Positions 7,572 to 64,000 of a DNA stretch of 64,000 nucleotides are shown here, one piece after another; the stretch's first letter is position 1; each line of letters starts with the position of its first letter. The stretch covers positions 1-64,000 of the IMG/VR virus record IMGVR_UViG_3300030616_000002; one strand, given 5' to 3'. The DNA is from a virus. A model generated the notes under the pieces. It had not been told where the DNA came from and made no database searches. It worked only from the letters and a program-made list of their open reading frames with translations. The position numbers were made by a program, and so were the translations under genes.

Positions 7572-7598
7572 CAACGAACAGGCTGACAGAGGGAGGGC

Positions 7599-8548: not shown

Positions 8549-8569
8549 CCGCCATCGAGGAGGTGGACC

Positions 8570-8842
8570 GTGACTAGCCCTCACCTGACCCTGCTCCGCG
8601 TGGAGCAGATAGACGAGCAGTGCGCCGAGCGCGGCAACCAGTGGGCGCTGTGCCAGGACTGGCGGTGGTCTTTCGCCGCGCTGGCTGCGATGCCGTGTGA
8701 GCAGCGGCGTTATCTCGCGTGCGAGCACTGCGGAGAAACAGGGTGCGAGAATTGCAACGGCAGCGGCCTTGTTCCCGGCCCCGACTGCGGCTCCTGCCCT
8801 ACCTGCAAGGCGCGGAAGGCGCTTGAGGTGGACCGTGGGTAA
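8570..8842 (+). CDS. small Cys-rich zinc-finger protein (DnaJ-type CxxCxGxG-like repeats)
   Basis: 90 aa. CEHCGETGCENCNGSGLVPGPDCGSCPTC. The GTG start is defined by the junction motif at 8557-8572. Confidence 0.55.
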   Translation: MTSPHLTLLRVEQIDEQCAERGNQWALCQDWRWSFAALAAMPCEQRRYLACEHCGETGCENCNGSGLVPGPDCGSCPTCKARKALEVDRG

Positions 8843-12534: not shown

Positions 12535-12798
12535 GTGGCGACTGACCTGCGAGAAAAGATCCGTCAGCGAATCAAGACCATGTCACCGGCACAGCTAGGT
12601 CAGTGCTACGATGCGCTGTTCAGTCGTCGCTGCCTGTCCTGCGCACAGGTCGAGCAAGGCGATGGCGACCTGGCCGAGGGCAAGAACTTCATGGACGATG
12701 GAGGCGACGGGCTTGTCTATTGCCAGCGATACGAAATCTGGGTGTCGGGCTGGCACAACAAGAACCCGCACTGCTACGAGGAGGTGGACCGTGACTGA
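12535..12798 (+). CDS. hypothetical protein
   Basis: In frame with ORF 12520..12798. Start moved to the motif-defined GTG 12535 (MATDLREKIR...). Ends EEVDRD. Confidence 0.5.
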   Translation: MATDLREKIRQRIKTMSPAQLGQCYDALFSRRCLSCAQVEQGDGDLAEGKNFMDDGGDGLVYCQRYEIWVSGWHNKNPHCYEEVDRD

Positions 12799-15317: not shown

Positions 15318-16265
15318 ATGGCTCGTGTACTGGTAACAGGCGGCGCTGGATTCATCGGATCGCACCTCTGCGATGCGCTGCTCATCCGCGGCGACGAGGT
15401 AGTCTGCCTTGATAACTTTTTCTCGGGTAGCCGGGACAACGTACAGCAGCATCGCGAGAATCCGCGCTTCGAGCTAATCCGCCACGATGTTGTTGAGCCT
15501 ATTTTGCTTGAGATCGATCAGATCTATCACCTGGCGTGCCCTGCCTCGCCGATCCACTACCAATACAACCCGGTCAAGACGACCAAGACTAACGTAATGG
15601 GAACGCTGAACATGCTCGGCTTGGCGAAGCGGGTAGGGGCGCGGCTGCTGCTAGCCTCTACCTCCGAGGTGTACGGCGATCCCGAGGTGCATCCACAGCC
15701 TGAGGATTACTGGGGACGGGTGAACCCTATCGGGCTGCGTTCCTGCTACGACGAGGGCAAGCGCGTAGCCGAGACGCTCTGCTTTGACTACCGCAGGCAG
15801 AACGGCGTGGACGCGCGCGTAGTGCGGATCTTCAATACCTACGGCCCGCGTATGGCTGCTGATGACGGCCGGGTAGTAAGCAACTTCTGTGTGGCGGCGC
15901 TCACCGGCAAGCCCCTGCTGGTATATGGGGACGGTAGCCAGACGCGGTCGTTCTGTTACGTACGCGACTTGGTCGACGGGCTGATCGCCGCGATGAATGG
16001 CGAGGCCGAGGGTATAGAGGGGCCGATCAATCTCGGCAACCCGGATGAGCGGACGGTACTAGAGCTGGCGCAGAAGATACTCTCCCTTACCCCGCCTGGG
16101 CCCGGCATCGAATACCGCGATCTGCCGGCAGACGATCCGGTCCGGCGGAAACCGGTAATAGATCGTGCTCGCAAGATCCTATGGTGGCGACCTACCGTCT
16201 CCCTAGATAGCGGCATAAGGACTACGTTAGAGAGCTTCCGCGAAAAAAACCTTGCTAAAGGCTAG
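15318..16265 (+). CDS. UDP-glucuronate decarboxylase (UDP-xylose synthase), SDR family
   Basis: 315 aa. [14 protein letters not shown] (Rossmann GxxGxxG), [15 protein letters not shown] (YxxxK) and [11 protein letters not shown] are characteristic of UXS-type enzymes. Confidence 0.88.
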
Positions 16266-25140: not shown

Positions 25141-25152
25141 TGCAAATTTGCA
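25141..25152. promoter_or_regulatory. perfect 12-bp palindrome TGCAAATTTGCA (copy 3 of 5)
   Basis: Read directly; 28 nt upstream of GTG 25180. Confidence 0.65.
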
Positions 25153-39036: not shown

Positions 39037-39122
39037 GGATGGTTGGCCGAATGGACTATGGCGCTGGTCTTGAAAACCAGTGGTCGAAAGACCTGGGGGT
39101 TCGAATCCCTCACCATCCTCCA
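39037..39122 (+). tRNA. tRNA-Ser (anticodon UGA), encoded CCA
   Basis: Hand-folded. Acceptor GGATGGT/ACCATCC; 3-bp D stem GCC/GGC; anticodon stem CTGGT/ACCAG with loop CTTGAAA; long variable arm GGTC-GAAA-GACC; T arm GGGGG-TTCGAAT-CCCTC; then T-CCA. Confidence 0.85.
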
Positions 39123-39124: not shown

Positions 39125-39210
39125 GGAGCGGTGCAGGAATGGCAACTGACCGGAGTGCTAATCCGAGGTCACCGGAAGGTGTGGAGGTTCGAGTCCTCCC
39201 CGCTCCGCCA
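39125..39210 (+). tRNA. tRNA-Ser (anticodon GCU), encoded CCA
   Basis: Hand-folded. Acceptor GGAGCGG/CCGCTCC; D stem CAG/CTG; anticodon stem CCGGA/TCCGA (one C-A mismatch) with loop GTGCTAA; long variable arm CACC-GGAA-GGTG; T arm GGAGG-TTCGAGT-CCTCC; then G-CCA. Confidence 0.7.
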
Positions 39211-40194: not shown

Positions 40195-40206
40195 TGCAAA
40201 TTTGCA
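40195..40206. promoter_or_regulatory. perfect 12-bp palindrome TGCAAATTTGCA (copy 4 of 5)
   Basis: Read directly; 39 nt upstream of the -35 of promoter F. Confidence 0.65.
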
Positions 40207-50715: not shown

Positions 50716-51050
50716 AGCCACCGCGCAAAAAAACCAAGCAGCACTATCGCACCGTACAGCAAGCGATCCGAGACGGCTGGCCTGACACCCTGCAAGGGAT
50801 CGATCTAACCGTCTCGAATTACAACCTGCTTGGCGATCTAGCGGCAGAGCTTTTCCGGGCGAATCCGGGCCGAGACGCAGCCGAAGTTCGCAAGGTAGCA
50901 ATCAACGCCTTTGTCAAGCGGTTGTGTGTCCCCCGCAAGGGCAAGTGGGTTGTAAGCACTACCTACACGCTAGCCAGCGGGCTTCAGTTTCCCAACCCGA
51001 GAGCGCCGCAACCGAACCTAGAGAAAGCCAACAGAGGGCAGCATGGATAA
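50712..51050 (+). CDS. hypothetical protein
   Basis: ORF track, 112 aa. Confidence 0.5.
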   Translation: MEPPRKKTKQHYRTVQQAIRDGWPDTLQGIDLTVSNYNLLGDLAAELFRANPGRDAAEVRKVAINAFVKRLCVPRKGKWVVSTTYTLASGLQFPNPRAPQPNLEKANRGQHG

Positions 51051-52515
51051 AAAGCGCCTGCAAGAATTCTGCGCCATTCGGGTAGAGATCCTCGAAGGCG
51101 AAGAGAACGAAAAGAAGGCGCAGGAGAACGGCTTTCTAATGATGGTGCGCGGCGTCGGTATGAACGCCGGGCGCGTAACTCTCAATAAGACCCTGTACCC
51201 GCGCGAGATAGTTTATCGAGAGGTCAGGAATATCCGACCCCGCATGGATGCCGGGCGCGTAGTTGGGCTCGCCGATCATCCTAGCATGTTCGGCGGTAAC
51301 GAGGTTCGGGACTCGGCCATCCGCTGGACCTCGGCCAAGATCAACGAGGACAACGACGTCGTCCTAGAGGGCGGCGTGCTCGATACCGAGGCTGGCAATG
51401 TGATTGCCGGCGCGTATCGGGGCGGCGTTCGTTATGGCATCTCGTCTCGCGGCTACGGCTCTGTCCGAGAAGTCGAGATGGACGAAGAGCATCCCGAGTG
51501 GGAACTGAACAAGGATCGCAAGGGCGAAGTCGTTTTGGAGATCCAAGACGATTACGAGCTTGAGTCCTGGGATATGGTCCTGAAGCCGTCCAACGAAGAC
51601 GCGTGGACGGAATCGGAAATCAAGCAAGCGCTAGCGCGGCTGGAGGCCGCAACAAACACCCATCAGGAGGAAACGATGGATATCAAGGATCTGAAGACTC
51701 TCCGTGAGTCGGTCTCCGCCGAGGTCGTGGACAAGATCGTGGCCGAGATGACCGAAGGCATGGTCAAGGCAGAGGACGCCGACAAGGCGAAGGCCGACGC
51801 CGTGACCGAGGCGCTCGCCGACAACGAAAAGGTCTGCGAGGCGCTGGGCATTTCGCCCAAGCTCGCCGCCTACGCGAAGGACAACAGCGACAAGCTGGAG
51901 CCCTGCGCAGAGGCCAACTATCCGCTCGACGCCCTCGACCCGACCAAGGTCGACGAAGAGAAGACCGAGCTAGAGAAGCAGGTCGAGGCGCAGACCAAGC
52001 AGATCACCGCGCTCACCGAGAAGGTCGCCGAGATGACCGACAAGGCGACGAGCGCAGAGAAGACCCTGCGAGACCGCGAGCGCGCCGAGGCGCTCTCCGG
52101 GATCGTAGAGGCGCAGACGGTCGGCGGCCGGTGGGCCGAGAAGCTCGCCGAGTGCGCCAATGACGATCTAGAGCTGCCCGAGGACTACGACGGCAGCGAC
52201 GCTGCCAATCAGGCAGCGGAGAAGATGGTCGAGACCTACCTTGGCGACAAGCGCGCCGAGTTCGAGGGCATCGCAGGTGCTGTAGAGCCGAAGCCTGGTA
52301 AGGGAACGAACGAAGGCGGCGGCGAGAAGCCTGAGGCCGATATGGTCAAGGCGGCTCGCGAGGACTTCGCGAAGGACTACCCGGCGCTGGTGCCGAACAA
52401 GTACAACTACGAGAACGCCAAGGGCGCTGCGGCCCGCGCAGGATACGGCGCGGAGTTCATGGCGTGCTACGGCCCGGCAGCGCAGGAAATCCTGCCCCTC
52501 GACGAGGTCGACTAG
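51043..52515 (+). CDS. prohead protease / scaffolding protein fusion (candidate)
   Basis: 490 aa directly upstream of the major capsid gene. The N-terminal ~170 aa are globular (NKTLYPREIV...GLADHP...GISSRGYG), and the C-terminal ~300 aa are Ala/Glu/Lys/Asp-rich and predicted helical, like scaffolds. Confidence 0.5.
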   Translation: MDKKRLQEFCAIRVEILEGEENEKKAQENGFLMMVRGVGMNAGRVTLNKTLYPREIVYREVRNIRPRMDAGRVVGLADHPSMFGGNEVRDSAIRWTSAKINEDNDVVLEGGVLDTEAGNVIAGAYRGGVRYGISSRGYGSVREVEMDEEHPEWELNKDRKGEVVLEIQDDYELESWDMVLKPSNEDAWTESEIKQALARLEAATNTHQEETMDIKDLKTLRESVSAEVVDKIVAEMTEGMVKAEDADKAKADAVTEALADNEKVCEALGISPKLAAYAKDNSDKLEPCAEANYPLDALDPTKVDEEKTELEKQVEAQTKQITALTEKVAEMTDKATSAEKTLRDRERAEALSGIVEAQTVGGRWAEKLAECANDDLELPEDYDGSDAANQAAEKMVETYLGDKRAEFEGIAGAVEPKPGKGTNEGGGEKPEADMVKAAREDFAKDYPALVPNKYNYENAKGAAARAGYGAEFMACYGPAAQEILPLDEVD

Positions 52516-52568: not shown

Positions 52569-53858
52569 ATGGGTGCTACCCCCGCATACGCGAAGCTCCT
52601 AGAGCAGGCCAACGGGTCGGACCAAGACCGCCAGGGCCTCCACGAGCAGCTCAACCGCCATGCCTTCCAGCGCGCCCGCCACGAGCGCTGGAAGCCCGTG
52701 ATCGACGGCACCAAGCCCGGCAAGTTCGACGAGGACTGCAAGCGGCAGGGTGGCCTCAGTGATCGCGGCGTCTCGGCTCTCCGCGCCATCGCAGAGAACT
52801 GCATGGACAAGATGGACAAAGAGTTCGACGACCCGCGGAACCGCAGCTATCTGAAGGCGTTTGCCGAGAAGGTCGGCGCGGGTCCGAACGGCCGCGCGAT
52901 CTACGAGTCGACGGACGTGGGCGACATCGCCGCGTTCCGTGACTTCTCGTTCGGCATCGTCAAGGAGATCTGGCCCAAGTTGGCACCGCTCGCCCGTATG
53001 ATCGGCCTGTTCTCCATGCCGGGCCCCTCGGAGCGGATCTTCTACCTGAAGACCTACGGCACCGATGCTAGCGGCAGCTTCTACAGCGCTGACTGGCGGC
53101 TCCGCAACCAGAACGACCCGGCCTACATCGACTACACCTGTGGCACCGAGGCCAACGAGGTCGAACTGGAGATCACCGGGGCCAACGTGACCGCGAGTGC
53201 ATACGCGCTGCTCGCCCGCTGGGATCTCTGCGCCGAGCAGGATGCCATGTCGCAGCACGGCGAGTCCCTGCAGTCCAACCTGCAGAACATCATGGCCGCG
53301 TATATCGCCCGCGCCACCGTGGGCAAGGTGCGCAACATGATCTCTGGCGGTGCTTCGGGTGGCAACAGCTCGTGGACCGCGACCGCGGCTTCGCCCTACA
53401 CTCTCGATTCGTTCGGGCCGCGTGCACACCTCCGCACGCTGGGCGACGCGATCATCGACATGGAGGGCCTCGTGCGAGCCAAGCGGTACGCTCCGCTCGG
53501 TTGGCTCTGGTGCTCGCCCGACGTGTCCCGCCGGTTCCAGAAGTTCGAGGACATGAAGTTCCGTCCCGCCGAGGACTTCTACGACGGCGAGATGGAGGGC
53601 CAGACGAGCTTTGCCGGCACCATGGGTCGCTGGGCCGTCTTCAACGACGACGACGCTCCGAGCGGCACTCTGCTCGGCGGCACGTCCCCGGTCGGCGGGA
53701 TCTCGAACATCGGCCTCATGCTGGCGATGTACATCCCGCTCATGTTCACCGGCCGGTTCATGGACCCCGCGGAAAACATCCCCCGCGAGGCCGCGCTGAC
53801 CCGCTACGCCCTCCACATGGTCGACTCCGGGCGGTTCGGCAAGGTGCTGATCAGCTAG
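52569..53858 (+). CDS. major capsid protein
   Basis: In frame with ORF 52464..53858. ATG 52569 follows AAAGGAAGG. 429 aa, positioned after the scaffold-like gene. The function call rests mainly on synteny and size. Confidence 0.7.
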   Translation: MGATPAYAKLLEQANGSDQDRQGLHEQLNRHAFQRARHERWKPVIDGTKPGKFDEDCKRQGGLSDRGVSALRAIAENCMDKMDKEFDDPRNRSYLKAFAEKVGAGPNGRAIYESTDVGDIAAFRDFSFGIVKEIWPKLAPLARMIGLFSMPGPSERIFYLKTYGTDASGSFYSADWRLRNQNDPAYIDYTCGTEANEVELEITGANVTASAYALLARWDLCAEQDAMSQHGESLQSNLQNIMAAYIARATVGKVRNMISGGASGGNSSWTATAASPYTLDSFGPRAHLRTLGDAIIDMEGLVRAKRYAPLGWLWCSPDVSRRFQKFEDMKFRPAEDFYDGEMEGQTSFAGTMGRWAVFNDDDAPSGTLLGGTSPVGGISNIGLMLAMYIPLMFTGRFMDPAENIPREAALTRYALHMVDSGRFGKVLIS

Positions 53859-53963
53859 TCGCGAATCCGGGGAGCCCCGGTAGCCCGCCAGCAACCGCCC
53901 CCGCTGTTCTGACTGCCGGGCTCCCCTGGTTCTTTCTCACCCTTTCCTGGGAGGACACCCCAA

Positions 53964-54554
53964 ATGGCAAGCAAGAAAACTGACGCGGGCAAAAAGGCCG
54001 CAACCGAGACCCCTGTTCCCGCAGAAAACATCCCGAAGGATACTGGCGGCAATCCGATCTTCATCGAAGAGAAGGTCGGAGACAAGATCGTCCGTAGGCC
54101 GAACCCGAAGTACATGGCCACTGCCGAAGAGGAGCAGGGCAAGTATAACCCCCGCGAGATCTACGAGTTCGTCTATATCGGCCCCTCGGATCACAAGCTC
54201 CCGAAGATCGAGAAGGTCGAGAAGGACGGCAAAGACCACTGGATCCAGACCGGCGGCGAACTTTGGCTAGGACCCGGCCAGCGAGTCAAGTATCTCGGCT
54301 GGATCGGCAACCACCGAGAATCTGATTTCGTGCTCGCAGACGATAAGGCCGTTACCGACGACTGGCTCTACCCCTGGTCCGAAGACACGATCATCGAACG
54401 GTTCAAGCGAGTACCGCCGGAGCTGTTCGATAGCTTCGTGCGGGCCTACCTGAAACTTTTTGGCGATCGTCGGCTCAAGGTGCAGGACTTCTACATGACA
54501 ACCTCCATAAAGCATCGCCAGGAAATCGAGGCTCGCCAGACCGGCGCTTTCTAG
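53964..54554 (+). CDS. head-associated hypothetical protein
   Basis: ORF track, 196 aa, immediately after the capsid gene. Confidence 0.5.
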   Translation: MASKKTDAGKKAATETPVPAENIPKDTGGNPIFIEEKVGDKIVRRPNPKYMATAEEEQGKYNPREIYEFVYIGPSDHKLPKIEKVEKDGKDHWIQTGGELWLGPGQRVKYLGWIGNHRESDFVLADDKAVTDDWLYPWSEDTIIERFKRVPPELFDSFVRAYLKLFGDRRLKVQDFYMTTSIKHRQEIEARQTGAF

Positions 54555-54563: not shown

Positions 54564-54923
54564 ATGCTTCTGACTAAGACCCCGCACTGGCCGCACGCGC
54601 GTACGGCAAACCGAGTAGCTAACGACACCGTAGAGCGGCATACGTTTAACTCTGCGGCCGAGATCGTGGGGTTCTACGCAGAGGCAGAGACGTTCATCCG
54701 GATCGGAGACGGCGCGGTCGATATCCCAGCTTACAACGCCAACGATGTTGTTAGGATCCCCGCTGGACACTGGACCGTCTTATCTCTCGTCGGTTGGGCC
54801 GAGCGCGGCCCGGCCAAGACCAGAACCACCGTTGCGTTCCGAGCACCCGTCAACAACCGCCTGCAGATCATGGAATGGGACAACCCGGAGATCGACGTGG
54901 GCGCTACCGGCGGCAGCTACTAG
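54564..54923 (+). CDS. hypothetical structural-module protein
   Basis: ORF track, 119 aa. Confidence 0.5.
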   Translation: MLLTKTPHWPHARTANRVANDTVERHTFNSAAEIVGFYAEAETFIRIGDGAVDIPAYNANDVVRIPAGHWTVLSLVGWAERGPAKTRTTVAFRAPVNNRLQIMEWDNPEIDVGATGGSY

Positions 54924-54926: not shown

Positions 54927-55652
54927 ATGGGTGCGATCGCTTCAGAGACGGTCCTAAAGGCGATTATCCGCAAGCGCTGCGATGGTGCCGATACGGATCT
55001 ACTGTCCGACGCTACCCTCGACAACTACCTAGACGACGCAGTCAACCGGGTTAACGAGTTGAACCCGCGCCTCATACTCTCGCAGCTAACCACGGTCGCG
55101 AATACCCAGGACTACCAGTTGACGGGCGGCGGCGCGAATCTCTCGAACTTCCTCGGCCTAGAAGCCGTATTTTATGATCAGACGAACACCGGGTTTCTCG
55201 CCGACGAGTTTCCTACCCTCTGGAGCCGCGGGCTCTACTCTCCGATCGCAGAAGGTATCTCGGTCTTCGACAACCCGTCGCTGGTCGAGATCTACTACCG
55301 CAAAGACGCCGCGTACGCCAAGGCCTTCGATGGTTCGTGGACCTACGTAGAGAAGGCGAGCGAGGCATACATCCGCCTTGAGCCAGCACCCGGCGTCGGC
55401 GATTCCATTGTCCCATACCTGTGGTGGCAGAAGCGAACACTAGACGATATGGAATCGTGGTTTCAGCAGAAGCTAGTTGATCTAGCCGCCGCCTATTGCC
55501 TGCAGTCAATCGGTAGTCGCCTTGAGATGCACCCCGAAGTTTCAATGGGGGGCTTCAAGGGCAAATCTACCGGCGCTCACCTTATCAGGCGCGGCGAGAA
55601 GTTAGAGCAGAAGGCCGAAGGGCGACTCATCCTACCACCTCTATTGGGGTAA
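54927..55652 (+). CDS. head-tail connector/adaptor-like protein (weak)
   Basis: 241 aa. The call rests on position and on an N-terminal helical segment like gp6-type connectors. Confidence 0.4.
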   Translation: MGAIASETVLKAIIRKRCDGADTDLLSDATLDNYLDDAVNRVNELNPRLILSQLTTVANTQDYQLTGGGANLSNFLGLEAVFYDQTNTGFLADEFPTLWSRGLYSPIAEGISVFDNPSLVEIYYRKDAAYAKAFDGSWTYVEKASEAYIRLEPAPGVGDSIVPYLWWQKRTLDDMESWFQQKLVDLAAAYCLQSIGSRLEMHPEVSMGGFKGKSTGAHLIRRGEKLEQKAEGRLILPPLLG

Positions 55653-55663: not shown

Positions 55664-58273
55664 ATGGCCAAAGAAAAGCTAACGCTGGTTAGACGCCAGA
55701 ATGGGCCAGATCTCGTCTTCTACGATGACGCGTGGGAACCCCGCGTAATCAAGATCGGCGAGTGGATCTCCGCCGTCGATCCGGTAGCCAAACTACCAGA
55801 GTTAGGCAGGCCGGAGCCGTTGCCTGGCGACGCAGAGCCAGCGGGACCGGTGTTCGTAAAGGGCGGCGTCAGGGTTCAGATCTTCCGCTCGCAGAAGAGT
55901 AGGGAAGCGCAGCAGGCAGCAGATGATAGTCCGGGGATCGATCGGCCAGAACGACACGGAGAACTCGCCAAGATCCGCGGGGGCAAGGAAGACTTCACGG
56001 CGACAACCGCGATTCTAATTCCCGAGGGCGGCCCGCGATCCGCTGACGCTGAGGGCTCTTGCGTAAGAGCGAAGGCTATAAGGATAGGGGAAGATGGGAT
56101 CCCCGCCGCGCTAAAGGACTTATCGCCGGATATCTACTGGGTGCTCGTACTCAACGGGCCAGAGCCGCCGCAGCAGGGGCAGCTTTTAGCAGCAGTTGAG
56201 AAACTAGACAGGAGTAGCGCGGCCCTCATCCAGATCTCGTGTGGCGTGGTGTGCTCGGCCCAGACGCTCAAGAGCCTACCTACAGACGCAACGACCAAGG
56301 CAAGCGATTTACCGAAAATAGCAGCGGCAAAGGGCGCTGCTACGATCAACGGCAAAGAGATCGTGATCAAGCTGCCTGGTATTACTGTGCCCAAGGGTCG
56401 GCCGAAAAAGTCGGCGGTCGGCGTAGTGGTCACGGTCCACAACGCGCTGCGGGCTACGTCGTACTGCCTCGAATCCCTGAAGCGCTTTGACTTCGGCGGC
56501 GGACTGAACCCCCGCGTGATCGTGGTCGACGACGAATCAGCGCCACACGTCGAAAAGAAACTCCGCGCTATCTGCGGGGAGAACAAGTGGATCTACAAGC
56601 GCAACATAACCCGGCAGGGATATACGCGCACGGTTACCTCCGGGCTAGATCACGCAGTTAAGCTCGGCTGCAAGTGGATCTGTATTCTCAACTCGGATAC
56701 ACTGGTTACTCCGGGCTGGCTCTACAAGCTGGTAAGGGCCGGTGAAACGGATCCAAAGATCGGCATGGTCGGGCCCTACTCTAATGCAGCGGTCCACTTG
56801 TCTCTGCCGCAGTGGCTACTAAAGGGAGAGGACCCGGTATCTATTGCGGGCAAGCTCGCGCTCACCTCGAAGCGCTGCTATCCCGATGCCCTGACCCCTA
56901 CCGGCTTCTGTCTGCTCCTTTCAAGCGAGGCGTGGAAAAAGCACAGGCCATTCCGGGACGATATCTACGGAGAGGCGTACGGCGAGGAAACCGAGTTCTG
57001 GGCGCAACTGGTCAAGGGCGGGGGGCGCGCGATCTTGGCCGACGACGCCTTTGTCTGGCACCAGGGCCACGCGTCCTACGGGCAGGAGCAAGGCCACGTT
57101 GCCGAGGGATTCGCTGTTGCAAAGTTCAAGGCACGGCACGGCGCATTGCTCCAGCAGAAGGCCCACGACTTCAACGCCACGGCGCACGAGCGGATACTAT
57201 ATCAGGCCAATAGGTTCCCGCAGGGGACGATGAGCAGGCGTCCGCGGATCGCGTTCTTCGCTCACGAATATGGGTTGTACGGCGGCGTCCTGGCTATCGC
57301 CAATATCGTTAACCGCCTGATCGTGCTCGGCTGGGATGCACGGATCGCGGTTCGGGTTATCCGCAACAAAGCGATCGACGCGTTGCCCCTGCTTACCCAC
57401 CCGGTACCGTTCGGCTCCAAGGCCAACTTCATGAATCACTTTGCGTCGGAGATGTTCGATAGCGGGATTCTCTGCGCTACGGTTTGGGATACGGCGTTCC
57501 CGGTTGCCGAGGTAGCGAAGATCAACAAGGGGATCAAGCCCTGCTACTTCATCCAAGACGATGAAACCACTTTCACGGATCCCGATGGCGAACGGTTTGT
57601 TTCCGCAGGCCCGGTAATCGAGTCCTACTCCCACATCCGAAAGAAGATCGTTAACTCGAAGTGGGTCGTTGATCGGATCGCCGGAGAGCACAAGGTCGAC
57701 GGCTGTGTCTATATCCCGGTCGGAGTAGATACCAACCTATTCCACCCGCGGCATAGAGAGGACTCGACGCCAACGGTACTGTTCTTCTGCCGTCCAGAGA
57801 CACCGCGCCGCGGGGCAGATCTAGTACAGCGGGTATGCAGCGAGTTGACCGCGCGCTACCCGGATCTCCGCCTTGTAACCTACGGCGGGACACTGCCGAA
57901 TATGCCGGCGGCCGTCGAGCAACTAGGAACGATCCCGCAGGAAGAGGCCGCGCAGATCTACTCGCAGGCAGACGTATTCCTGGAGGCTTCGCACACGCAG
58001 GGATTCGGATTGCAGGGGCTAGAGGCGATGGCCTCAAGATGTGCGGTGGTATCAACGCGTAACCGCGGAATCGACAACTACGGGCGGGACCAGCAGAACT
58101 GCACGCTCATAGATATTGGCGATCAAGAAGCGGCCGTAGGCGCGATCGTAGAGCTGATCGAAGATCATAGCAAGCGCCAGCGCTACGTTGATGCCGGAAT
58201 GGAGACCGCTGCCGAGTTCGATTGGTGGCGGATTGCGGAGCAGTGGGACAAGGAATTGAGGAAGCTGTTGTGA
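55664..58273 (+). CDS. bifunctional glycosyltransferase (unknown N-domain + GT2 + GT4/GT1-type domain)
   Basis: 869 aa. GT2 part: VGVVVTVHNA...VIVVDDESAP...ILNSDTLV (DxD-like). C-terminal GT1 part: VLFFCRPETPRRGADL...ADVFLEASHTQGFGLQGLEAMASRCAVVST (E-x7-E type motif). Confidence 0.8.
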   Translation: MAKEKLTLVRRQNGPDLVFYDDAWEPRVIKIGEWISAVDPVAKLPELGRPEPLPGDAEPAGPVFVKGGVRVQIFRSQKSREAQQAADDSPGIDRPERHGELAKIRGGKEDFTATTAILIPEGGPRSADAEGSCVRAKAIRIGEDGIPAALKDLSPDIYWVLVLNGPEPPQQGQLLAAVEKLDRSSAALIQISCGVVCSAQTLKSLPTDATTKASDLPKIAAAKGAATINGKEIVIKLPGITVPKGRPKKSAVGVVVTVHNALRATSYCLESLKRFDFGGGLNPRVIVVDDESAPHVEKKLRAICGENKWIYKRNITRQGYTRTVTSGLDHAVKLGCKWICILNSDTLVTPGWLYKLVRAGETDPKIGMVGPYSNAAVHLSLPQWLLKGEDPVSIAGKLALTSKRCYPDALTPTGFCLLLSSEAWKKHRPFRDDIYGEAYGEETEFWAQLVKGGGRAILADDAFVWHQGHASYGQEQGHVAEGFAVAKFKARHGALLQQKAHDFNATAHERILYQANRFPQGTMSRRPRIAFFAHEYGLYGGVLAIANIVNRLIVLGWDARIAVRVIRNKAIDALPLLTHPVPFGSKANFMNHFASEMFDSGILCATVWDTAFPVAEVAKINKGIKPCYFIQDDETTFTDPDGERFVSAGPVIESYSHIRKKIVNSKWVVDRIAGEHKVDGCVYIPVGVDTNLFHPRHREDSTPTVLFFCRPETPRRGADLVQRVCSELTARYPDLRLVTYGGTLPNMPAAVEQLGTIPQEEAAQIYSQADVFLEASHTQGFGLQGLEAMASRCAVVSTRNRGIDNYGRDQQNCTLIDIGDQEAAVGAIVELIEDHSKRQRYVDAGMETAAEFDWWRIAEQWDKELRKLL

Positions 58274-59031
58274 ACTGGGACAAGCCAGACCGCAACTTCG
58301 TGATCATGGGCATGGCCCGGAGCGGGACTAGCCTTGCCTGTAAGCTGGTCAGTGAGCAGGTAAGAAACTCCTACTGCCTCAACGACGCAGAGATCAACTT
58401 CAACAAGGTGCCAGCACTGCTGGCCGAAACCCGTAGGTGCCTGGTCAATCGAGAGCCCGTCACTAACCGCTTCAGGGGCGATGAGCTTTCAAGCGATACG
58501 GTTCGGGTACTAGCTCCCTTGGAGCCGCGAGTAGCAACCGGAGACTTTAATAGCAACGCCGCAGTCGGCGTGAAAATGATCCCGGAGTACCGCAAGGCGA
58601 TTGCTGCTGGGTATCTCGTAATCGCTATGCTTCGAGATCCGGTCTATGCGATCGCTAGCTGGGGAAGCCACGATATCGCGTGGGCCCACGTTACCGACGA
58701 CGACATGGATCCGATCTGGCGATATAGGGGGATCAAGTTCAAGATGAGTTCGCAGGTCGAGCGGCAGTGCGAGATCTGGGAGTTCTTTGCAAAGCAGATC
58801 CTAGAGGCCAAGGCTAGCGGCAAGGTACAGGTTGATGTCTGGAAATACGAGGGCCTTGTAGCGTTGCCCGATCTTCATATCCGAGACTTTGCTAGCTACT
58901 TCGGGCTCGCGGCAAAGCGCGGAGTCCGCCTGGCCAACCTGAACGACCCATCGCGATTCTACGGAATAAGAACAATCCGTGACGCCGTCGCGGAGCTTTG
59001 CCCATCAAGGCTGGAGTTCGGTTATGCCTGA
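58270..59031 (+). CDS. sulfotransferase family protein (type B paralog 1)
   Basis: In frame with ORF 58222..59031, from GTG 58270 (GTGA overlap). MGMARSGTSLA is a 5'-PSB-like loop and AMLRDPVYAIAS is a 3'-PB-like motif. Confidence 0.7.
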   Translation: MNWDKPDRNFVIMGMARSGTSLACKLVSEQVRNSYCLNDAEINFNKVPALLAETRRCLVNREPVTNRFRGDELSSDTVRVLAPLEPRVATGDFNSNAAVGVKMIPEYRKAIAAGYLVIAMLRDPVYAIASWGSHDIAWAHVTDDDMDPIWRYRGIKFKMSSQVERQCEIWEFFAKQILEAKASGKVQVDVWKYEGLVALPDLHIRDFASYFGLAAKRGVRLANLNDPSRFYGIRTIRDAVAELCPSRLEFGYA

Positions 59032-59803
59032 CCTCGTAATTACTGGCCCGTGTCGCAGCGGTACGGCACTATTGCACACGCTGGTCAACGATTATGTGCC
59101 CAACGCGATCTGCACCAATGAGGTGGTGAACAAAGGAATCGCTGGGCTGAAGGCATACTTCGCTGCGACCCGCAAGGCAGTCAACGCGGGCAAGCCGATC
59201 GCCAATCGCTACGCGCGAGACGGGTCCTTATCTGATAACTCCTGGCGCAAGGGCGCGGAGATACAACGCCGCGTAGTCGAGAAGCCGCTAGAGGGTGACT
59301 GGCTTATGGCTACAAAGGTCATGCTTGGGTGCATGGATCATATTCCCGAGATCGTTGACCTCGGATTCCCCGTTGCCGTGATAGTCCGAGATCCTGTCTA
59401 TACTCTGGGCTCATGGGGGGACCCGAAGACCAGGGGACAGACGGTCGGGCGTATCACGGAAAACGACATGCACAAGTGGTGGGAGAAACACCCGTTCCCG
59501 TTCAACAGGATCGATGCAATCGGAAGACGAGCGGAATACTGGAACTACCTGGCCAGCACGATCTACGAGTCGATCTGTATTGCCCCTAAGGGCACGGTAC
59601 GATTGTTCCGTTACGAGGATCTCGTAACCGATACGATTGGCGAGTTGCAGAAGATTACCAAATGGTTTGATATGGACGATCCGATCGGTGCGCCAAAGCT
59701 CAAGAGCGCCAACAGAGACGATCGATACCCAGTGAGGATGGGTGAGATCAAAAAGGTTGTCGGGAGGCTTTGCCCGATACGGGATAAGTTTGGATACAAA
59801 TAG
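59024..59803 (+). CDS. sulfotransferase family protein (type B paralog 2)
   Basis: In frame with ORF 58979..59803, from ATG 59024. TGPCRSGTALL and VIVRDPVYTLGS. Confidence 0.7.
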   Translation: MPDLVITGPCRSGTALLHTLVNDYVPNAICTNEVVNKGIAGLKAYFAATRKAVNAGKPIANRYARDGSLSDNSWRKGAEIQRRVVEKPLEGDWLMATKVMLGCMDHIPEIVDLGFPVAVIVRDPVYTLGSWGDPKTRGQTVGRITENDMHKWWEKHPFPFNRIDAIGRRAEYWNYLASTIYESICIAPKGTVRLFRYEDLVTDTIGELQKITKWFDMDDPIGAPKLKSANRDDRYPVRMGEIKKVVGRLCPIRDKFGYK

Positions 59804-59812
59804 GAGGGACTG

Positions 59813-60922
59813 ATGCGCTTTCTGTTCATAGGCGCGCACTATCCAGCGCTGCGAAGGGAACTGCGGAAGCTCGGCCACGAGTGCAAGGACGTTGACCACT
59901 GGGCCCTCTTCTGCAGGCGCGGGGCGCTGGCTGCCGCGGAGTCTTGCCACCCAGAGGGTACCGAGGGCGGTACGCAGTCGGCAGTCAATGATCATGTTCG
60001 CCGCGTAGCGCTTGAGTACAAACCTGATGTTATCGTGCAGTGGAAAGGCTGGATCGACGGGGCTCGCTTTATTCTCCCCGATACGATCAGCTACCTGAAG
60101 GATGAGTTAGATTGCCTGACCGTTTACTGGAGCGTTGACGATCCCGATTTCGTCGGCTTCTGGCGGCAGCACATGAGCGGGATCGGCGTCTGGGATGTGG
60201 CCCTTACCTGCTGCGCTGCGAGCAAAGAGATCTACCGAAAGGCTGGAGTCAGATATCCTCACTATTTCCTGCCGGCCTTTGATACCGAGTGGCCGATCGA
60301 TACGCTCGAAGGCGAACGCGAAACCGCGGATCTCGTTGTCGCTGGTCACTCCTACGCCCCGATCCACGGGGCAGACATGGGGCGGGCAGCCTTCGCGCTA
60401 GCGGTCAAGCGGGCGGGCTACAAGGTGGAGATCTACGGGCCCAACCCGGAGATGTGGACGACTCCGGGCGGTATCTTGGTAACAGGGCACCCGGAGCTAA
60501 GGGAATGTTACCGGGGCTGGCTACAGCATGACGACGTGTGGAAGGCGTATATCCGCGGCAAGGTCGTGCTCAACAACCATCTGCGAAAGGGCGGGGGATA
60601 CGACAAGCGATACACGGGCTACTGCAACGACAAGATCTTTCAGATCGCCGGGGCCAACGGCGCAACGCAGCTCATGGATTACCAGCCGGGGATCTCTCCG
60701 GACGTATATACTGCGGGCCTAGAGTTCGTACAGTATCGCAAAAGCCTAGAGCCGCAGGAGTGCCTTGATTCGGCTTTTGAGATCTTCGAGGACCTAATCG
60801 CTAACGACGACGTTAGGTACGGCATGCGGGATGCTGCGCGCAAGCGCACGCTAGCCGAGCACACATGGAGACACCGAGCCGAGCAGCTTATGCAAATTTG
60901 CAAAACAGGAGGAAAGGGGTAG
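59813..60922 (+). CDS. CgeB-like glycosyltransferase (candidate)
   Basis: 369 aa. The overall layout and the C-terminal ...RKRTLAEHTWRHRAEQL resemble CgeB/DUF3880-type GT1-like proteins (recalled). Confidence 0.5.
   Translation: MRFLFIGAHYPALRRELRKLGHECKDVDHWALFCRRGALAAAESCHPEGTEGGTQSAVNDHVRRVALEYKPDVIVQWKGWIDGARFILPDTISYLKDELDCLTVYWSVDDPDFVGFWRQHMSGIGVWDVALTCCAASKEIYRKAGVRYPHYFLPAFDTEWPIDTLEGERETADLVVAGHSYAPIHGADMGRAAFALAVKRAGYKVEIYGPNPEMWTTPGGILVTGHPELRECYRGWLQHDDVWKAYIRGKVVLNNHLRKGGGYDKRYTGYCNDKIFQIAGANGATQLMDYQPGISPDVYTAGLEFVQYRKSLEPQECLDSAFEIFEDLIANDDVRYGMRDAARKRTLAEHTWRHRAEQLMQICKTGGKG
60891..60902. promoter_or_regulatory. perfect 12-bp palindrome TGCAAATTTGCA (copy 5 of 5)
   Basis: Read directly; 23 nt upstream of ATG 60925, inside the 3' end of the preceding gene. 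Confidence 0.65.
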
Positions 60923-60924
60923 AG

Positions 60925-61662
60925 ATGCCACGCCCTCTTCCCGCCTGCGCGCGGCTCGTTATGGCGAACAAGGAAAGAAACAAGATCGTTTCGTTTCCCC
61001 GGTCAGGCATTTCGTGGTTGTTCCTCCGGACCAATCGCTTTCTACTGCACCGGTTCGGCATTGAGGACACGAGCCCTACGGCCCGGTTCTTGTCGCACTC
61101 GCACTTGGGCTACTTGCCGCACAACGATAAAACAGTGATTCACCATTCTATGCGACACAAGTTGAACTATCCAGAAGGCACGAGGGTAACGGTACTGCTA
61201 CGAGACGCGCGCTCGATTCTCGCCTCTGTGTATCATTATAGACGGCGAAACGTAAACGGCTGCTGCGAGATTGCTAGTGAGTTTGTAGCTAGTAATACGG
61301 GCGCGTCCTGTTTGAGCGCTTTTCTGAACGACGTCGCTTTGCTTGCGAGCAGGGCAGAGAAAAACAAGTGGGACCTACGATTTATCTACTACGAGGATAT
61401 GCTAGATCCGCTTTTCCTTGATTGTATCCCAGACATTCTCGGGCTCGGGTGCGTGCTGACGGATATTGAGAGGGAAGCCCTAGCCGAGGACAGCAACTTC
61501 ATAGTGCATCCGTCAAGGTTATACGAAAGACTCAATGACGCCGATTCGAATTACCAGAAGAACAAGTACAAGGAAGCATTTGGCGAGAAAGACGTGCGCT
61601 TCATCGAAGATCACATGAAGCGGTTTTGCAAACTGCGGCAATACAGCGTGCGGTATTGCTAG
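60925..61662 (+). CDS. sulfotransferase family protein (type A paralog 1)
   Basis: In frame with ORF 60865..61662. ATG 60925 follows AGGAGGAAAGGGG. SFPRSGISWL, VLLRDARSILAS, IYYEDML. Confidence 0.65.
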   Translation: MPRPLPACARLVMANKERNKIVSFPRSGISWLFLRTNRFLLHRFGIEDTSPTARFLSHSHLGYLPHNDKTVIHHSMRHKLNYPEGTRVTVLLRDARSILASVYHYRRRNVNGCCEIASEFVASNTGASCLSAFLNDVALLASRAEKNKWDLRFIYYEDMLDPLFLDCIPDILGLGCVLTDIEREALAEDSNFIVHPSRLYERLNDADSNYQKNKYKEAFGEKDVRFIEDHMKRFCKLRQYSVRYC

Positions 61663-61671
61663 GGAGGAATT

Positions 61672-62202
61672 ATGGAACCGATGGTAGGGGCGGACGCTTG
61701 GGAGCGTTATTGGTCAACACCGAATCCTGATCGCAGAGACCGCAAGTGGCCGCTATATACGAGAATGGCGCTGCTGGTGGTTGACGTTGCGGAAGGCAGG
61801 CAGGTCAGTGTTGCCGAGGTCGGATGCGGGGTCGGCGGTTTTTTGGATCGCCTGCGTGGTTTGAAGGGGATCAACAAGATCGGCTTTGACATCGCGCCGA
61901 CTGCAGTAGAAGCGTGCAAGAACCGGGATCACAATGCGTTCATCGCGGATGCCGCTGATCTTCCGGTTGACGGCAGCTTTGATATTATCGTCGCGATCGA
62001 TCTGCTCGGCTACCTAGAGGATCCCCACGCTGCCCTACTACACTGGCGAGACCTAACGCCAGGGGGGGAGCTGATTGTCGCGGATCCCTACTACGATACT
62101 GACGTGCTAAAGCAGACAATAGAGGGCGCAGGGTTCAGCGTAACCGACGAGCGCATGGTGACGGCATCTAGCAAGGCGTTTCGGATTGTGGTAGCCAAGT
62201 GA
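61672..62202 (+). CDS. class I SAM-dependent methyltransferase
   Basis: 176 aa. VAEVGCGVGGFL (motif I), GFDIAP, IIVAIDLLGYLEDP. Confidence 0.8.
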   Translation: MEPMVGADAWERYWSTPNPDRRDRKWPLYTRMALLVVDVAEGRQVSVAEVGCGVGGFLDRLRGLKGINKIGFDIAPTAVEACKNRDHNAFIADAADLPVDGSFDIIVAIDLLGYLEDPHAALLHWRDLTPGGELIVADPYYDTDVLKQTIEGAGFSVTDERMVTASSKAFRIVVAK

Positions 62203-62915
62203 GGGCGAGGAGCTACTTTATCTCGTATCCGCGATCCGGTAGTCACTGGATCAAGCAGCGTATACGATTGCTGCTCGCCGGGATCAGCGGAGTCGATAGC
62301 GACCCGGACCAGCGATACAACTGGACCCACTACGGCTATGCGTTCAACCCGAGCCGCAATATACCAGGCCGAAAGGTAAAGCCGCCGAGAAAGTCAAACG
62401 TAGTGCTACTGCTGCGCGATGCTGTTCCGATCGTGGGATCAACGTATCACTTCATGCATACGCGCTTGGTTGAGTTAGGCCCGGAAGATCGCAACCTGCA
62501 GATAGAAAAGGATCATGACGCGTTCGTTAGGGGCGGCTGGGGCGTATCAAGATACTGCGCCTTTTTGAACGAGGTATCAGATCTCATGGAGAGCGCGCAG
62601 GAGCTACGCTGGCGGGTCAAGCCTGTTTTCTACGAGGACCTGTTCAGCGAGGAGTCGATTGCAGAGCTTCCGTGGATACTCGGCTTGAGCTTCTGGGTAT
62701 CGCCAGAAATCAGCAGAGATATCTTTGAGCAAACGAGGCAGCTAATCAACCCGTCCCTGAAAGCGCAGAAGGGCACGATAGCAACGGAGAGATACCAGGC
62801 CACGAAGCACAGCAATGTGATCAGTAAAGAATCCGAGCGATACATTCGGGGCTACATGGACAAGCACTGTAGGCTCGGGCTCTACCGAGAGCGCTACATA
62901 GATAGGGGCGAATGA
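62199..62915 (+). CDS. sulfotransferase family protein (type A paralog 2)
   Basis: 238 aa. SYPRSGSHWI, LLLRDAVPIVGS, VFYEDLF. Confidence 0.7.
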   Translation: MRARSYFISYPRSGSHWIKQRIRLLLAGISGVDSDPDQRYNWTHYGYAFNPSRNIPGRKVKPPRKSNVVLLLRDAVPIVGSTYHFMHTRLVELGPEDRNLQIEKDHDAFVRGGWGVSRYCAFLNEVSDLMESAQELRWRVKPVFYEDLFSEESIAELPWILGLSFWVSPEISRDIFEQTRQLINPSLKAQKGTIATERYQATKHSNVISKESERYIRGYMDKHCRLGLYRERYIDRGE

Positions 62916-63571
62916 AAATGAGAACTCAAAACTTTTTCATTTCGCACCCGAGATCGGGGACGCAGTGGACAAAAAGAAGAATTAAGGCCATTCAAGAATG
63001 GCGCGGCATTGTGCCCGGCAACAGGGTGACGTTCTCGCATTTTGGGTACAACCCCATGACCCCACGAAACCCAAACAAGCAGAGAAACGTCATTGGCCTT
63101 AATGTGACCGTTCTTATGAGGGATCCGTGTGCTTTGTTTGCTTCATATTATTGTTTTTACAACGGTCAGGCCAGGAAACACCGGGATCGCCCGGAGGCAC
63201 GGAGCCCCGTTGAATTTGTTTTGGGTGATTATGGAATTTCGAGACTGTGCTCGTTTTTGAATGATGTTGATCGTGTTGTCGTTCAAGACGCGGCAAGTAA
63301 AAACAACCGGATTAATTATTTGTTCTATGAGGATCTTTTTAATGTGGATCGGTTTGCCAAGATGATGTTGCCCATTATGGACACCGGGCGCGCGCTAGTG
63401 GGCAAAGAGATAGAAATTCTCAGCAAACATCACACGATGGACAGGAATGCGCAAATCAACAAATATCGTGAAACGCTAACGCGCGAAGCAATAGATATAG
63501 TACGCGATGGGATGCGTTCTGGTTGTAGGTTGGCTGCATATCGTAAGCGCTACCTAGAGAAGGGCGATTAG
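62912..63571 (+). CDS. sulfotransferase family protein (type A paralog 3; AT-richer)
   Basis: 219 aa. SHPRSGTQWT, VLMRDPCALFAS, LFYEDLF. Noticeably lower GC. Confidence 0.7.
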   Translation: MKMRTQNFFISHPRSGTQWTKRRIKAIQEWRGIVPGNRVTFSHFGYNPMTPRNPNKQRNVIGLNVTVLMRDPCALFASYYCFYNGQARKHRDRPEARSPVEFVLGDYGISRLCSFLNDVDRVVVQDAASKNNRINYLFYEDLFNVDRFAKMMLPIMDTGRALVGKEIEILSKHHTMDRNAQINKYRETLTREAIDIVRDGMRSGCRLAAYRKRYLEKGD

Positions 63572-63572
63572 C

Positions 63573-64000
63573 ATGGGCCCAGCAGAGCACAAGATGTTCC
63601 AAGCCCTAAACGGCACGTTCCCTGAAAAGATAGACTTGATCAACTCGCCGGTTGAGCGCAAGCTACACTTGGGCTCCGGCGTTGAGGTTGACCCGAAGTG
63701 GACCAACATTGATCGGTCGTACGCAAAGCCGCTGCCGAAACAGGGCAAGCAAGTACAGCTTGACATCTTGCGCCTGAATGAACACTACAAGCCGGGCTCC
63801 GCGGATTTGATCTTGAGCCATCATGTTGTCGAACACCTGAGTTACCGGGTTGTGCTAGACGCGATCAAGCAGTGGGCCGAAATTCTAGCCCCGGGCGGCT
63901 GTATGTATATCTGCGTGCCTGAGGTAGCATGGGCTATTGACTGCGCGCGCGGCGGGCCTCACTGGGCCCTACAGCCCGACTATAGGCGCGGCAAGTTCGA
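63573..64000 (+). CDS. class I SAM-dependent methyltransferase (partial, runs off window end)
   Basis: Own translation: MGPAEHKMFQALNG...LHLGSGVEVDPKWTNID...ADLILSHHVVEHL...LAPGGCMYI. Methyltransf_11-like pattern. Confidence 0.6.
   Translation, partial: MGPAEHKMFQALNGTFPEKIDLINSPVERKLHLGSGVEVDPKWTNIDRSYAKPLPKQGKQVQLDILRLNEHYKPGSADLILSHHVVEHLSYRVVLDAIKQWAEILAPGGCMYICVPEVAWAIDCARGGPHWALQPDYRRGKF

Follow-up and report, generated by a model that had tools for sequence, protein, structure and literature searches.

A predicted glycan sulfation and methylation island beside the head genes of a metagenomic tailed phage

Introduction

What would a tailed phage make with five sulfotransferases placed among glycosyltransferases (GTs) and methyltransferases close behind its capsid gene? 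The question is raised by the right-hand end of a 64,000-nucleotide stretch of DNA (positions 1 to 64,000 of IMG/VR virus record IMGVR_UViG_3300030616_000002, hereafter the window), which corresponds to positions 15-64014 of a metagenome contig of 94,112 bp (ena:ERZ27252234:k141_1547066; locus L002, which has its own numbering, belongs to it). Nine consecutive open reading frames (ORFs), all on the plus strand, run from position 55664 to the window end and had been described in a first-pass annotation as an island of co-oriented, mostly overlapping genes that continues past the window. The ORF list bears out the nine starts, the shared orientation and the tight packing, and the rest of this contig adds six more island genes, the last of which ends at ~68,082 in window-equivalent coordinates. 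The whole island thus comprises 15 genes in 12.4 kb (55664 to ~68082), spaced by gaps of -8 to +11 nucleotides (nt). The source element is a tailed phage. Taken jointly, this origin and the identities of the enzymes are held with high confidence. Regarding the purpose of the island, the reading favoured here, to which about an even chance is given, is that it encodes a cytoplasmic, phage-borne enzyme set that glycosylates virion proteins and subsequently sulfates and methylates the glycan, the acceptor being suggested by gene context.

Sulfotransferase features

The five P-loop proteins which had been proposed to be sulfotransferases are identified as such by Pfam, by family profiles compared with the PDB, by conserved motifs for binding of 3'-phosphoadenosine 5'-phosphosulfate (PAPS) and, at the level of the fold, by the model of one of them (STb2). 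All five are predicted to carry out PAPS-dependent sulfuryl transfer. They form two paralog groups, as had been suggested, with the genes at 58270 and 59024 in group A and those at 60925, 62199 and 62912 in group B, all on the plus strand. Group A is Sulfotransfer_3-like and belongs to the core shared by the clade; it consists of STa1 (58270..59031), with a 5'-phosphosulfate-binding (PSB) loop reading GMARSGTSL and an LRDP...S motif, and STa2 (59024..59803), which matches Pfam Sulfotransfer_3 with 34.9 bits against a cut-off of 27. Group B, which is divergent and resembles Sulfotransfer_1 and the cytosolic SULTs, belongs to an accessory module and consists of STb1 (60925..61662; SFPRSGISW, SHLGY with the catalytic His, LLRDA...S), STb2 (62199..62915), with a sulfotransferase fold according to AlphaFold and Foldseek, and STb3 (62912..63571), the AT-richer copy, with a Pfam Sulfotransfer_1 match of 22.0 bits that equals the cut-off of 22. 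As single sequences, STa1, STb1 and STb2 match the sulfotransferase models of Pfam below cut-off. Identity within either group is 29-30% (29% between STa1 and STa2); between the groups nothing is detectable by BLASTP, and hhalign links them with 91.6% probability.

The PSB loop is TYPKSGTTW in cytosolic SULTs and GxxRSGT(T/S)L in TPST-like enzymes, and the 3'-phosphate-binding motif consists of an Arg with a Ser eight residues on, as in R130/S138 of SULT1E1. Both motifs on which the first-pass annotation relied, an xRSG(T/S/I) loop and a downstream (L/M/V)RD(P/A), were found in all five proteins. The loop takes the form S(F/Y/H)PRSG(I/S/T)xW in group B and G(M/P)(A/C)RSGT(S/A)L in group A, and RD(P/A)xxxxxS is invariant, 57-111 residues after RSG. 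In a profile match, the group B loop aligns on TYPKSGTTW of SULT1B1 and the R...S motif on the SULT1B1 segment LARNAKDVSVSYY. His44 of group B, located within an SH(L/Y/F)GY motif, is kept in 90% or more of 54 relatives and falls on the catalytic His of SULT1B1 (THL); a residue equivalent to this His is not assignable from sequence in group A.

Group B has only 264 relatives (E <= 1e-3) among 1.84 billion representative proteins, according to an exhaustive HMMER search. When a 54-sequence group B profile was compared with the PDB, the matches were cytosolic sulfotransferases (SULT1B1, E 3e-27), and 49 of the 54 family members match PF00685 on their own. The AlphaFold model of STb2 reached a predicted local distance difference test score (pLDDT) of 78.4 and a predicted template modelling (TM) score of 0.78, and all of its top 45 Foldseek matches in the PDB were PAPS sulfotransferases (SULT1A1, LGS1, Teg12/14, StaL; TM ~0.5). 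Regarding group A, a single-sequence phmmer search of the PDB with STa2 was uninformative. With a five-sequence profile the top 26 PDB matches were all sulfotransferases (TPST1/2, the CurM sulfotransferase, heparan sulfate 3-OST), at weak scores (E >= 0.004), and a profile search of 5.8 billion proteins yielded 45 homologs, most with precomputed PF13469 or PF00685 assignments and a few named as sulfotransferases at their source. A kinase identity, which the first-pass annotation had raised as a check on the P-loop proteins, was ruled out, as all fold and profile matches are sulfotransferases.

The nearest cellular homologs of group A (34% identity) form the C-terminal domain of a fusion of tetratricopeptide repeats (TPR), a GT4 and a sulfotransferase. 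This fusion adjoins a GT2-TPR protein and a flagellin gene, in L095 also fliD, and was found on 22 contigs (including L095-L097, L111 and L112); the loci span L095 1089-9990 and L111/L112 470-5374. This is the standard layout of a flagellin O-glycosylation locus, whose soluble enzymes act in the cytoplasm on a self-assembling surface protein prior to its export. The function is suggested by context, and it predicts sulfated flagellin glycans in those uncultured bacteria. More distant homologs of group A (25%) occur together with NeuB, HldE-like, epimerase and radical S-adenosylmethionine (SAM) genes.

The same searches bear on a reading in which some or all of the sulfotransferases act on side chains of virion proteins (Tyr, Ser, Thr or hydroxylated residues), for instance in a fibre-like protein, and the GTs and methyltransferases make a separate modification. 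The best PDB matches of group A are the tyrosylprotein sulfotransferases TPST1/2, reached through the GxxRSGT(T/S)L loop, and group B is nearest to the cytosolic SULTs and to Teg12/14 and StaL, which are glycopeptide-antibiotic sulfotransferases acting on phenolic groups of peptides. The TPST matches are, however, weak (E 0.004-0.02) and confined to the cofactor loop; in every relative, genes for GTs and sugar-type methyltransferases lie between those of the sulfotransferases; and the homologs of the flagellin loci are fused to a GT4, which fits glycan decoration better. Protein sulfation is in line with the bacterial operons predicted by Iyer et al. (2010; PMC2938197), in which sulfotransferases would modify phage tail-collar-like and collagen-like proteins. 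On balance it is considered improbable for the island.

Glycosyltransferases, methyltransferases and sugar supply

The other enzymes of the island were assigned by family, and the earlier assignments were confirmed throughout. The signature gene, with which the island opens, encodes an 869-amino-acid fusion GT (55664..58273, plus strand), previously described as a GT2+GT4 fusion with an N-terminal domain of ~250 residues that was called unknown. Pfam places GT2 at residues 254-370 and GT1/GT4 at residues 693-845, with no family match for residues 1-250. The N-domain begins with a beta-rich part of ~90 residues, after which a Rossmann domain is possible. A model of the N-terminal 250 residues (AlphaFold, pLDDT 67.6) gave weak Foldseek matches of GT-A/nucleotidyltransferase or IspD-like type (E >= 0.1); a degenerate GT-A-like domain is possible on this basis and is offered as a lead only. 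Full-length homologs of the fusion GT (37-63% identity) occupy the same locus in related phages. The GT2+GT4 homologs of cellular origin (~30% identity) are devoid of the N-domain; those in Acidobacteriota adjoin other GT2 genes, the context in L022 being only a neighbouring GT2.

A CgeB-like GT of the clade core (59813..60922, plus strand) matches PF13524 (Glyco_trans_1_2) with 70.3 bits against a cut-off of 25 and has orthologs of 43-65% identity in L008, L010, L092, L093 and L106. MT1 (61672..62202) and MT2 (63573..64000, cut by the window end; 209 amino acids, ending at 64202), both on the plus strand, are class I SAM methyltransferases according to Pfam; the matches of MT1 are to Methyltransf_11/23/12/31/25 (E down to 3.5e-12), and its orthologs share 57% identity in L003, 41% in L106 and 31% in L008. 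Past the window end, island genes encode a CmcI/rhamnosyl-O-methyltransferase-like methyltransferase, GT4b, MT3, a possible methyltransferase of 186 amino acids and GT4c. Together with the GT2 and GT4 domains of the fusion protein and the CgeB-like GT, the two GT4s bring the GT domains of the island to five. The CmcI/rhamnosyl-O-methyltransferase match points to O-methylation of sugars. Among PHROG families, the GT domains match glycosyltransferases of moron or auxiliary metabolic gene (AMG) type, the GT2 domain weakly a GtrB-like one (E 1.6e-4).

A sugar donor is likely to be supplied by a UDP-xylose synthase (UDP-glucuronate decarboxylase) encoded 40 kb upstream of the island (15318..16265, plus strand). 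In a phmmer search of the PDB, residues 3-309 of the product match human UXS1 with 434 bits (E 2.6e-129), the next family being GalE with 136 bits; the Pfam Epimerase model scores 177 bits, and all NCBIfam models are below cut-off.

This enzyme content also bears on the idea that the product of the island is a small molecule, soluble or lipid-linked (for example a sulfated and methylated glycoside, a Nod-factor-like compound or a glycolipid), which would act on the host or on competitors. The folds of the sulfotransferases are closest to small-molecule sulfotransferases, one relative of the phage adds a radical SAM enzyme, and NodH/NodS-type combinations of sulfation and methylation are known from bacteria. 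Against this, no scaffold-forming family (nonribosomal peptide synthetase, polyketide synthase, acyltransferase, lipid synthase) was found among the 15 island proteins, the presence of five GT domains implies that an oligosaccharide is added to an acceptor which already exists, and this reading leaves the constant place of the island in the structural module unexplained. A small-molecule product is thus regarded as a poor candidate, less probable still than protein sulfation.

Phage context of the island

The island lies within a phage structural module. Structural genes of the window encode a large terminase, a portal protein, a prohead protease (51043-52515, plus strand; PHROG head maturation protease, T4-type, S77) and a Gp23-family major capsid protein (52569-53858 as called, plus strand; PF07068). 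The Gp23 match, together with PHROG matches to the head maturation protease, portal and TerL, marks a T4-type head module, and the capsid gene has distant tblastn matches to capsid genes of T4-like and jumbo phages. Between the capsid gene and the island, which are 1.8 kb apart, lie three head-module genes on the plus strand (53964-54554, 54564-54923 and 54927-55652), whose conservation is shown by orthologs and synteny in L001, L008, L009, L010 and L106. Searches of protein families, PHROG and the PDB gave no match for the three proteins, and profile searches of the PDB with p241 and p196 returned noise only. The last of the upstream genes is separated from the island by 11 nt, and the island end overlaps the next downstream gene by 22 nt, so that genes of the structural module are contiguous with it on both flanks. 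Downstream lie putative virion genes, which include small unannotated conserved ORFs and a gene for a 747-amino-acid protein with tail-fibre-like GDxNTG repeats; this protein has weak PHROG matches; the other six of the seven downstream proteins scanned have none. The window also encodes a replication initiator, a DnaB-type helicase, a ParB-like protein, a beta clamp, an exonuclease and a DNA methyltransferase.

The first-pass annotation had pointed out that the region might be flanking host DNA, with a prophage boundary before 55.6 kb. This was ruled out by the phage structural-module genes on both sides and by the recurrence of the same synteny in at least five related contigs; the region is phage.

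A T4-type head module calls to mind the T-even phages, in which glucosyl-hydroxymethylcytosine in the DNA serves to evade restriction, and an island that hypermodifies phage DNA with glycosylated, decorated bases was considered for the same purpose. The phage encodes DNA methyltransferases and a PP-loop protein of the PAPS-reductase family, and one relative has an N6_N4 DNA methyltransferase gene inside the island. On the other hand, no hydroxymethylase, thymidylate-synthase-like gene or DNA-GT homolog was found among the ORFs scanned, the island is situated in the structural rather than the nucleotide-metabolism module, and its methyltransferases include the sugar O-methyltransferase type. 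We know of no sulfated DNA modification. DNA hypermodification is accordingly given very little weight, the least of all the alternatives.

No segment of transmembrane-grade hydrophobicity was detected in the 15 island proteins by the Kyte-Doolittle scale: the maximal 19-residue hydropathy of every one of them is at most 1.63, equal to that of the soluble capsid protein. Family scans of the 15 proteins gave no match to a lipid-carrier GT, a flippase or a polymerase.

Conservation in relatives

In all seven contigs that reach the junction (the window contig, L001, L008, L009, L010, L106 and L107), the fusion GT directly follows a homolog of p241, and the order is common to all: protease, Gp23 capsid protein, three small conserved proteins, fusion GT. 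The island was thus found at the same junction in at least five divergent relatives, with capsid identity down to 34%. The latter value refers to L106, in which GT4c (50%), STa2 (47%), the CgeB-like GT (43.5%) and the fusion GT (41%) are more similar to their counterparts in the window than the capsid protein is. By these values, selection on the island is no weaker than selection on the capsid protein.

The conserved core consists of the fusion GT, one to three group A sulfotransferases, the CgeB-like GT, methyltransferases and a terminal GT4. Orthologs of STa1 share 48% identity in L008 and 37% in L106, and those of STa2 35-61% in L008, L010, L092, L093 and L106. The accessory module, which comprises the group B sulfotransferases, GT4b and MT3, is present in the window, L003 and L093 and absent from L008; the orthologs of STb1 share 57% identity in L003 and 61% in L093, and the ortholog of STb2 in L003 shares 43%. 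(Note that IMG/VR yielded no relatives when scanned with the fusion GT or with the profile of either sulfotransferase group, and a scan with the capsid protein gave one 4-kb fragment.)

These orthologs also bear on the history of the sulfotransferase copies. The first-pass annotation had noticed that the last copy is AT-richer and had taken this as a sign of stepwise acquisition. The composition was confirmed, with a GC content of 0.467 in STb3 (0.52 at third codon positions) compared with 0.52-0.60 in its island neighbours within the window and ~0.57-0.60 in those next to it. The conclusion is not supported: all three group B copies have 1:1 orthologs in L003 (57, 55 and 43%), and the ortholog of STb3 (L003 1540-2193, 55% identical) has a GC content of 0.569. 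Recent stepwise acquisition of STb3 was rejected on the grounds of the 1:1 orthologs and of the normal GC content of this ortholog. By sequence comparison, the triplication of group B is old, since each copy has its own counterpart in L003, and the low GC content of STb3 is lineage-specific, allelic replacement being one possible cause.

The fixed position bears most directly on the main competitor of virion glycosylation, namely that the island remodels a host cell-surface polysaccharide (lipopolysaccharide O-antigen, capsule or exopolysaccharide) during infection. Possible purposes are a block to superinfection, avoidance of re-adsorption of progeny to lysing cells, or an altered surface of the infected cell. 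Prophage-encoded O-antigen modification is well established. The GT2, GT4, CgeB-like and methyltransferase families are those that polysaccharide clusters typically encode, the PHROG matches to moron/AMG-type GTs include the weak GtrB-like one related to O-antigen conversion, the Acidobacteriota GT2+GT4 homologs adjoin other GT2 genes, and distant relatives of group A are found in sugar-nucleotide clusters (NeuB, HldE-like, epimerases). These points are opposed by the 15 island proteins, which have neither a transmembrane-grade segment nor a match to a priming GT, flippase, polymerase, ligase or transporter, and by the position of the island, which is fixed at one head-to-tail junction down to a capsid identity of 34%. 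Host-range morons are usually variable. Furthermore, a pair of a GT and a sulfotransferase occurs inside the head module of an unrelated phage (see below), and no lysogeny genes were seen in the annotated part of the window. Remodelling of the host surface, in which the enzymes would act at the cytoplasmic face on lipid-linked host intermediates or on intermediates of an ABC-transporter pathway, is judged unlikely, while being the strongest of the alternatives.

Insertions were observed at the locus in several relatives. An N6_N4 DNA methyltransferase gene lies between the fusion GT and the sulfotransferases in L106/L107 (7849-9210), a radical SAM enzyme is encoded inside the island of L003 (4538-5260), and L009 has an OrfB_IS605/Cas12f-like TnpB fragment (4922-5395) between the capsid gene and the next head-module gene.

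Predicted product

If virion glycosylation is the function of the island, the five GT domains would build an oligosaccharide directly on one or more structural proteins during morphogenesis, the candidate acceptors being the capsid protein, a neighbouring head protein or the downstream fibre-like protein. The five PAPS-dependent sulfotransferases would then O-sulfate the glycan at distinct positions, and four or five SAM methyltransferases, one of which resembles rhamnosyl-O-methyltransferase/CmcI, would O-methylate it. The UDP-xylose synthase of the phage would provide one donor; PAPS, SAM and the other nucleotide sugars would be taken from the host. The expected product is a polyanionic, partly methyl-capped glycan coat on the particle. 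From gene context we infer the virion acceptor, a glycan rather than a protein as the acceptor of sulfate, the presence of xylose in the product and the biological role.

Direct glycosylation of virion proteins is favoured by the flagellin-type loci and by an unrelated phage, taken together with the missing membrane components and with an island position that does not vary within the structural module. In the unrelated phage (L101 9029-10717, also L099), which represents an independent recurrence of the pairing, a GT4 gene immediately followed by a gene for a group-A-like sulfotransferase (33% identical to STa2) is located inside the head module, between the portal and capsid genes. This phage has a T7-type terminase nuclease domain, an SPP1-type portal and a Phage_cap_E capsid protein.

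Several observations weigh against this reading. The capsid protein and its neighbours have no obvious Ser/Thr-rich tail, and no acceptor was picked out; the three conserved proteins upstream of the island have no assignable function by family, PDB and PHROG searches. All genes of the 64-kb window are co-oriented, and co-orientation therefore says little about co-regulation. The GT2, GT4 and methyltransferase families are no less characteristic of polysaccharide pathways, and ABC-transporter-dependent O-antigen synthesis likewise uses soluble cytoplasmic enzymes, so that the missing membrane proteins are not decisive. In structure, the sulfotransferases come closest to enzymes of the small-molecule, glycopeptide and tyrosyl-protein types and not to carbohydrate sulfotransferases; sulfation of a glycan is therefore deduced from context. 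The GTs of the island have no detectable homology to any deposited phage GT. Finally, a motif search in six frames of 73.5 kb of the contig found no APS kinase, ATP sulfurylase or CysN; PAPS is therefore presumably derived from the host.

The only PP-loop found in that motif search is SGGKDS at 7805, part of a PAPS-reductase-family protein (7496-8548; PF01507, 69.5 bits) encoded downstream of the ParB-like protein (6115-7158). It attracts attention because this phage also has five sulfotransferases that consume PAPS. No CysH or CysD model matches it above cut-off; it may be unrelated to sulfate metabolism and probably has no part in sulfate activation.

A more far-reaching version of virion glycosylation, which is put forward tentatively and rated somewhat below an even chance, would have the whole clade coat its virions with a virus-encoded, multiply O-sulfated, O-methylated, xylose-containing glycan. 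If true, a virus would for the first time be seen to place a sulfated glycoconjugate of its own making on its particle; the sulfotransferase paralogs, which vary from one to five per genome, would tune a "sulfation code" for adsorption, sticking to matrices or evasion; and the pairing of GT and sulfotransferase in head modules, present also in the unrelated phage with the SPP1-type portal, would represent a recurrent, independently evolved phage strategy.

Comparison with known systems

To our knowledge, glycosylation of virions by phage enzymes has been demonstrated experimentally in a few mycobacteriophages only, in which the glycans shield the particles from antibodies. According to PMC12363180, which cites Freeman et al. 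2023, GTs of the phages Che8 (gp110), Corndog (gp38) and Myrna glycosylate the virions; they act in the cytoplasm on capsid and tail tube subunits and give a glycan shield, the mechanism which is proposed here for the island. As in the mycobacteriophages, the GT genes of the island adjoin the capsid and structural block. No homology was detected: in tblastn searches of 50,697 deposited phage genomes the fusion GT matched one weak GT4 fragment of an uncultured faecal phage and the CgeB-like GT matched nothing. Because of this result the island is placed outside the mycobacteriophage GT family; by analogy it is predicted to work alike, with sulfation as new chemistry. It is also much larger: its GT domains number five, and five sulfotransferases and four or five methyltransferases are added to them. 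No report of sulfotransferases or methyltransferases in mycobacteriophage virion glycosylation was found in the literature.

Flagellin O-glycosylation loci resemble the island in that soluble cytoplasmic enzymes are encoded beside the gene of a self-assembling surface polymer. The island differs from them in having no TPR domains, in its stand-alone and multiplied sulfotransferases and in the adjacent structural gene, which is that of the capsid. Among eukaryotic viruses, giant viruses and chloroviruses glycosylate their capsids with virus-encoded, cytoplasmic and host-independent enzymes, an example being the multi-domain GT/methyltransferase A064R of PBCV-1, and the glycans of their major capsid proteins, which are made with multi-domain GTs, contain xylose and O-methylated sugars. 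We know of no virus-encoded sulfation of these glycans. Their capsid lineage is unrelated to that of the phage. GtrABC O-antigen conversion by prophages is similar in employing phage-encoded enzymes of glycan modification and in the weak PHROG similarity of the GT2 domain to GtrB. The Gtr proteins are membrane-embedded (flippase, bactoprenol GT, periplasmic GT) and encoded near attachment or lysogeny regions, whereas the island has no membrane segments and belongs to the structural module.

The first-pass annotation was aware of no described phage system with a battery of sulfotransferases in the structural region, and none turned up here. A BLAST comparison of the sulfotransferases of the window with the 50,697 deposited phage genomes yielded one weak match, to Pseudomonas phage Y4, and nothing else; the literature searches brought up only isolated phage sulfotransferases of unknown function, and no report of a multi-sulfotransferase phage island or of sulfated glycans on a phage particle was found. 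Genomes of OM43 phages carry single sulfotransferase genes, which were treated as AMGs and whose function was stated to be unclear (PMC10580990). BFVD names sulfotransferases in the Synechococcus phages S-SRM01 and ACG-2014f, in Xanthomonas phage FoX4, in pithoviruses and in Ranid herpesvirus 3. Such isolated viral sulfotransferases share the superfamily (PF13469/PF00685-type) with those of the island; in the OM43 phages they are single genes.

The record of Pseudomonas phage Y4 (L011, OQ572406.1) is marked UNVERIFIED and is unannotated. It contains a sulfotransferase homolog (28% identity) at 8001-8627 and, ~4.3 kb downstream, a GT4-like region at 12968-13789.

Sulfation is otherwise linked to eukaryotic matrices, to algal and cyanobacterial polysaccharides and to haloarchaeal S-layers. 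If the proposed function is correct, elaborate glycosylation of particles would reach well beyond the actinobacteriophages, and phage coats would gain sulfation as an added chemistry. Sulfated and methylated coats would alter the charge, stickiness, stability and recognition of virions, which would bear on phage ecology (adsorption to particles and exopolymers, decay rates), on determinants of host range and on phage engineering. For glycoengineering, the island would be a compact source of soluble sulfotransferases, GTs and methyltransferases whose partners are defined. The shared sulfotransferase subfamily links phage head modules to flagellin glycosylation loci.

Palindrome and other features of the window

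A palindromic site had been pointed out at 60891, inside the island, and is indeed present there as one of five copies in the window of the perfect 12-nt palindrome TGCAAATTTGCA (1983-1994, 4747-4758, 25141-25152, 40195-40206 and 60891-60902). Four copies are exact and one has a single mismatch; 100 shuffles of the sequence contained none. Every copy precedes a start codon by ~20-35 nt, in many cases with an A-rich stretch behind it, and the copy at 60891 lies 23 nt before the start of STb1, at the junction of the core and accessory parts of the island. Among the first ten loci examined, TGCAAATTTGCA was found in none except L002, the window's own contig. From its distribution it may be a phage-specific regulatory or promoter-associated site.

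A terminator-like hairpin with a T-rich tail (53915-53930) is situated in the 105-nt gap that directly follows the capsid gene. By attenuation it could lower transcription of the genes behind it, those of the island among them. The number of terminator-like sites in the region overall is not above the expectation from shuffled sequences.

Following the gene of the fibre-like protein, a protein of 140 amino acids with a strongly hydrophobic segment is encoded at L002 19974-20396 (window-equivalent 72885-73307). With a 19-residue Kyte-Doolittle mean of 2.95, this segment is the only one of clear membrane type in the 27 proteins examined from 51.0 to 73.3 kb.

A 613-amino-acid Cys-rich protein (12611-14452) is encoded two genes upstream of the UDP-xylose synthase. 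It has an acidic (T/S)D dipeptide-repeat tract at about residues 412-450 and a coiled-coil-like C-terminus, and its only family matches, which are due to low sequence complexity, are to SD-repeat regions of staphylococcal adhesins. The only tRNA genes in the window are an adjacent pair of tRNA-Ser genes at 39037-39122 and 39125-39210, with the anticodons UGA and GCU.

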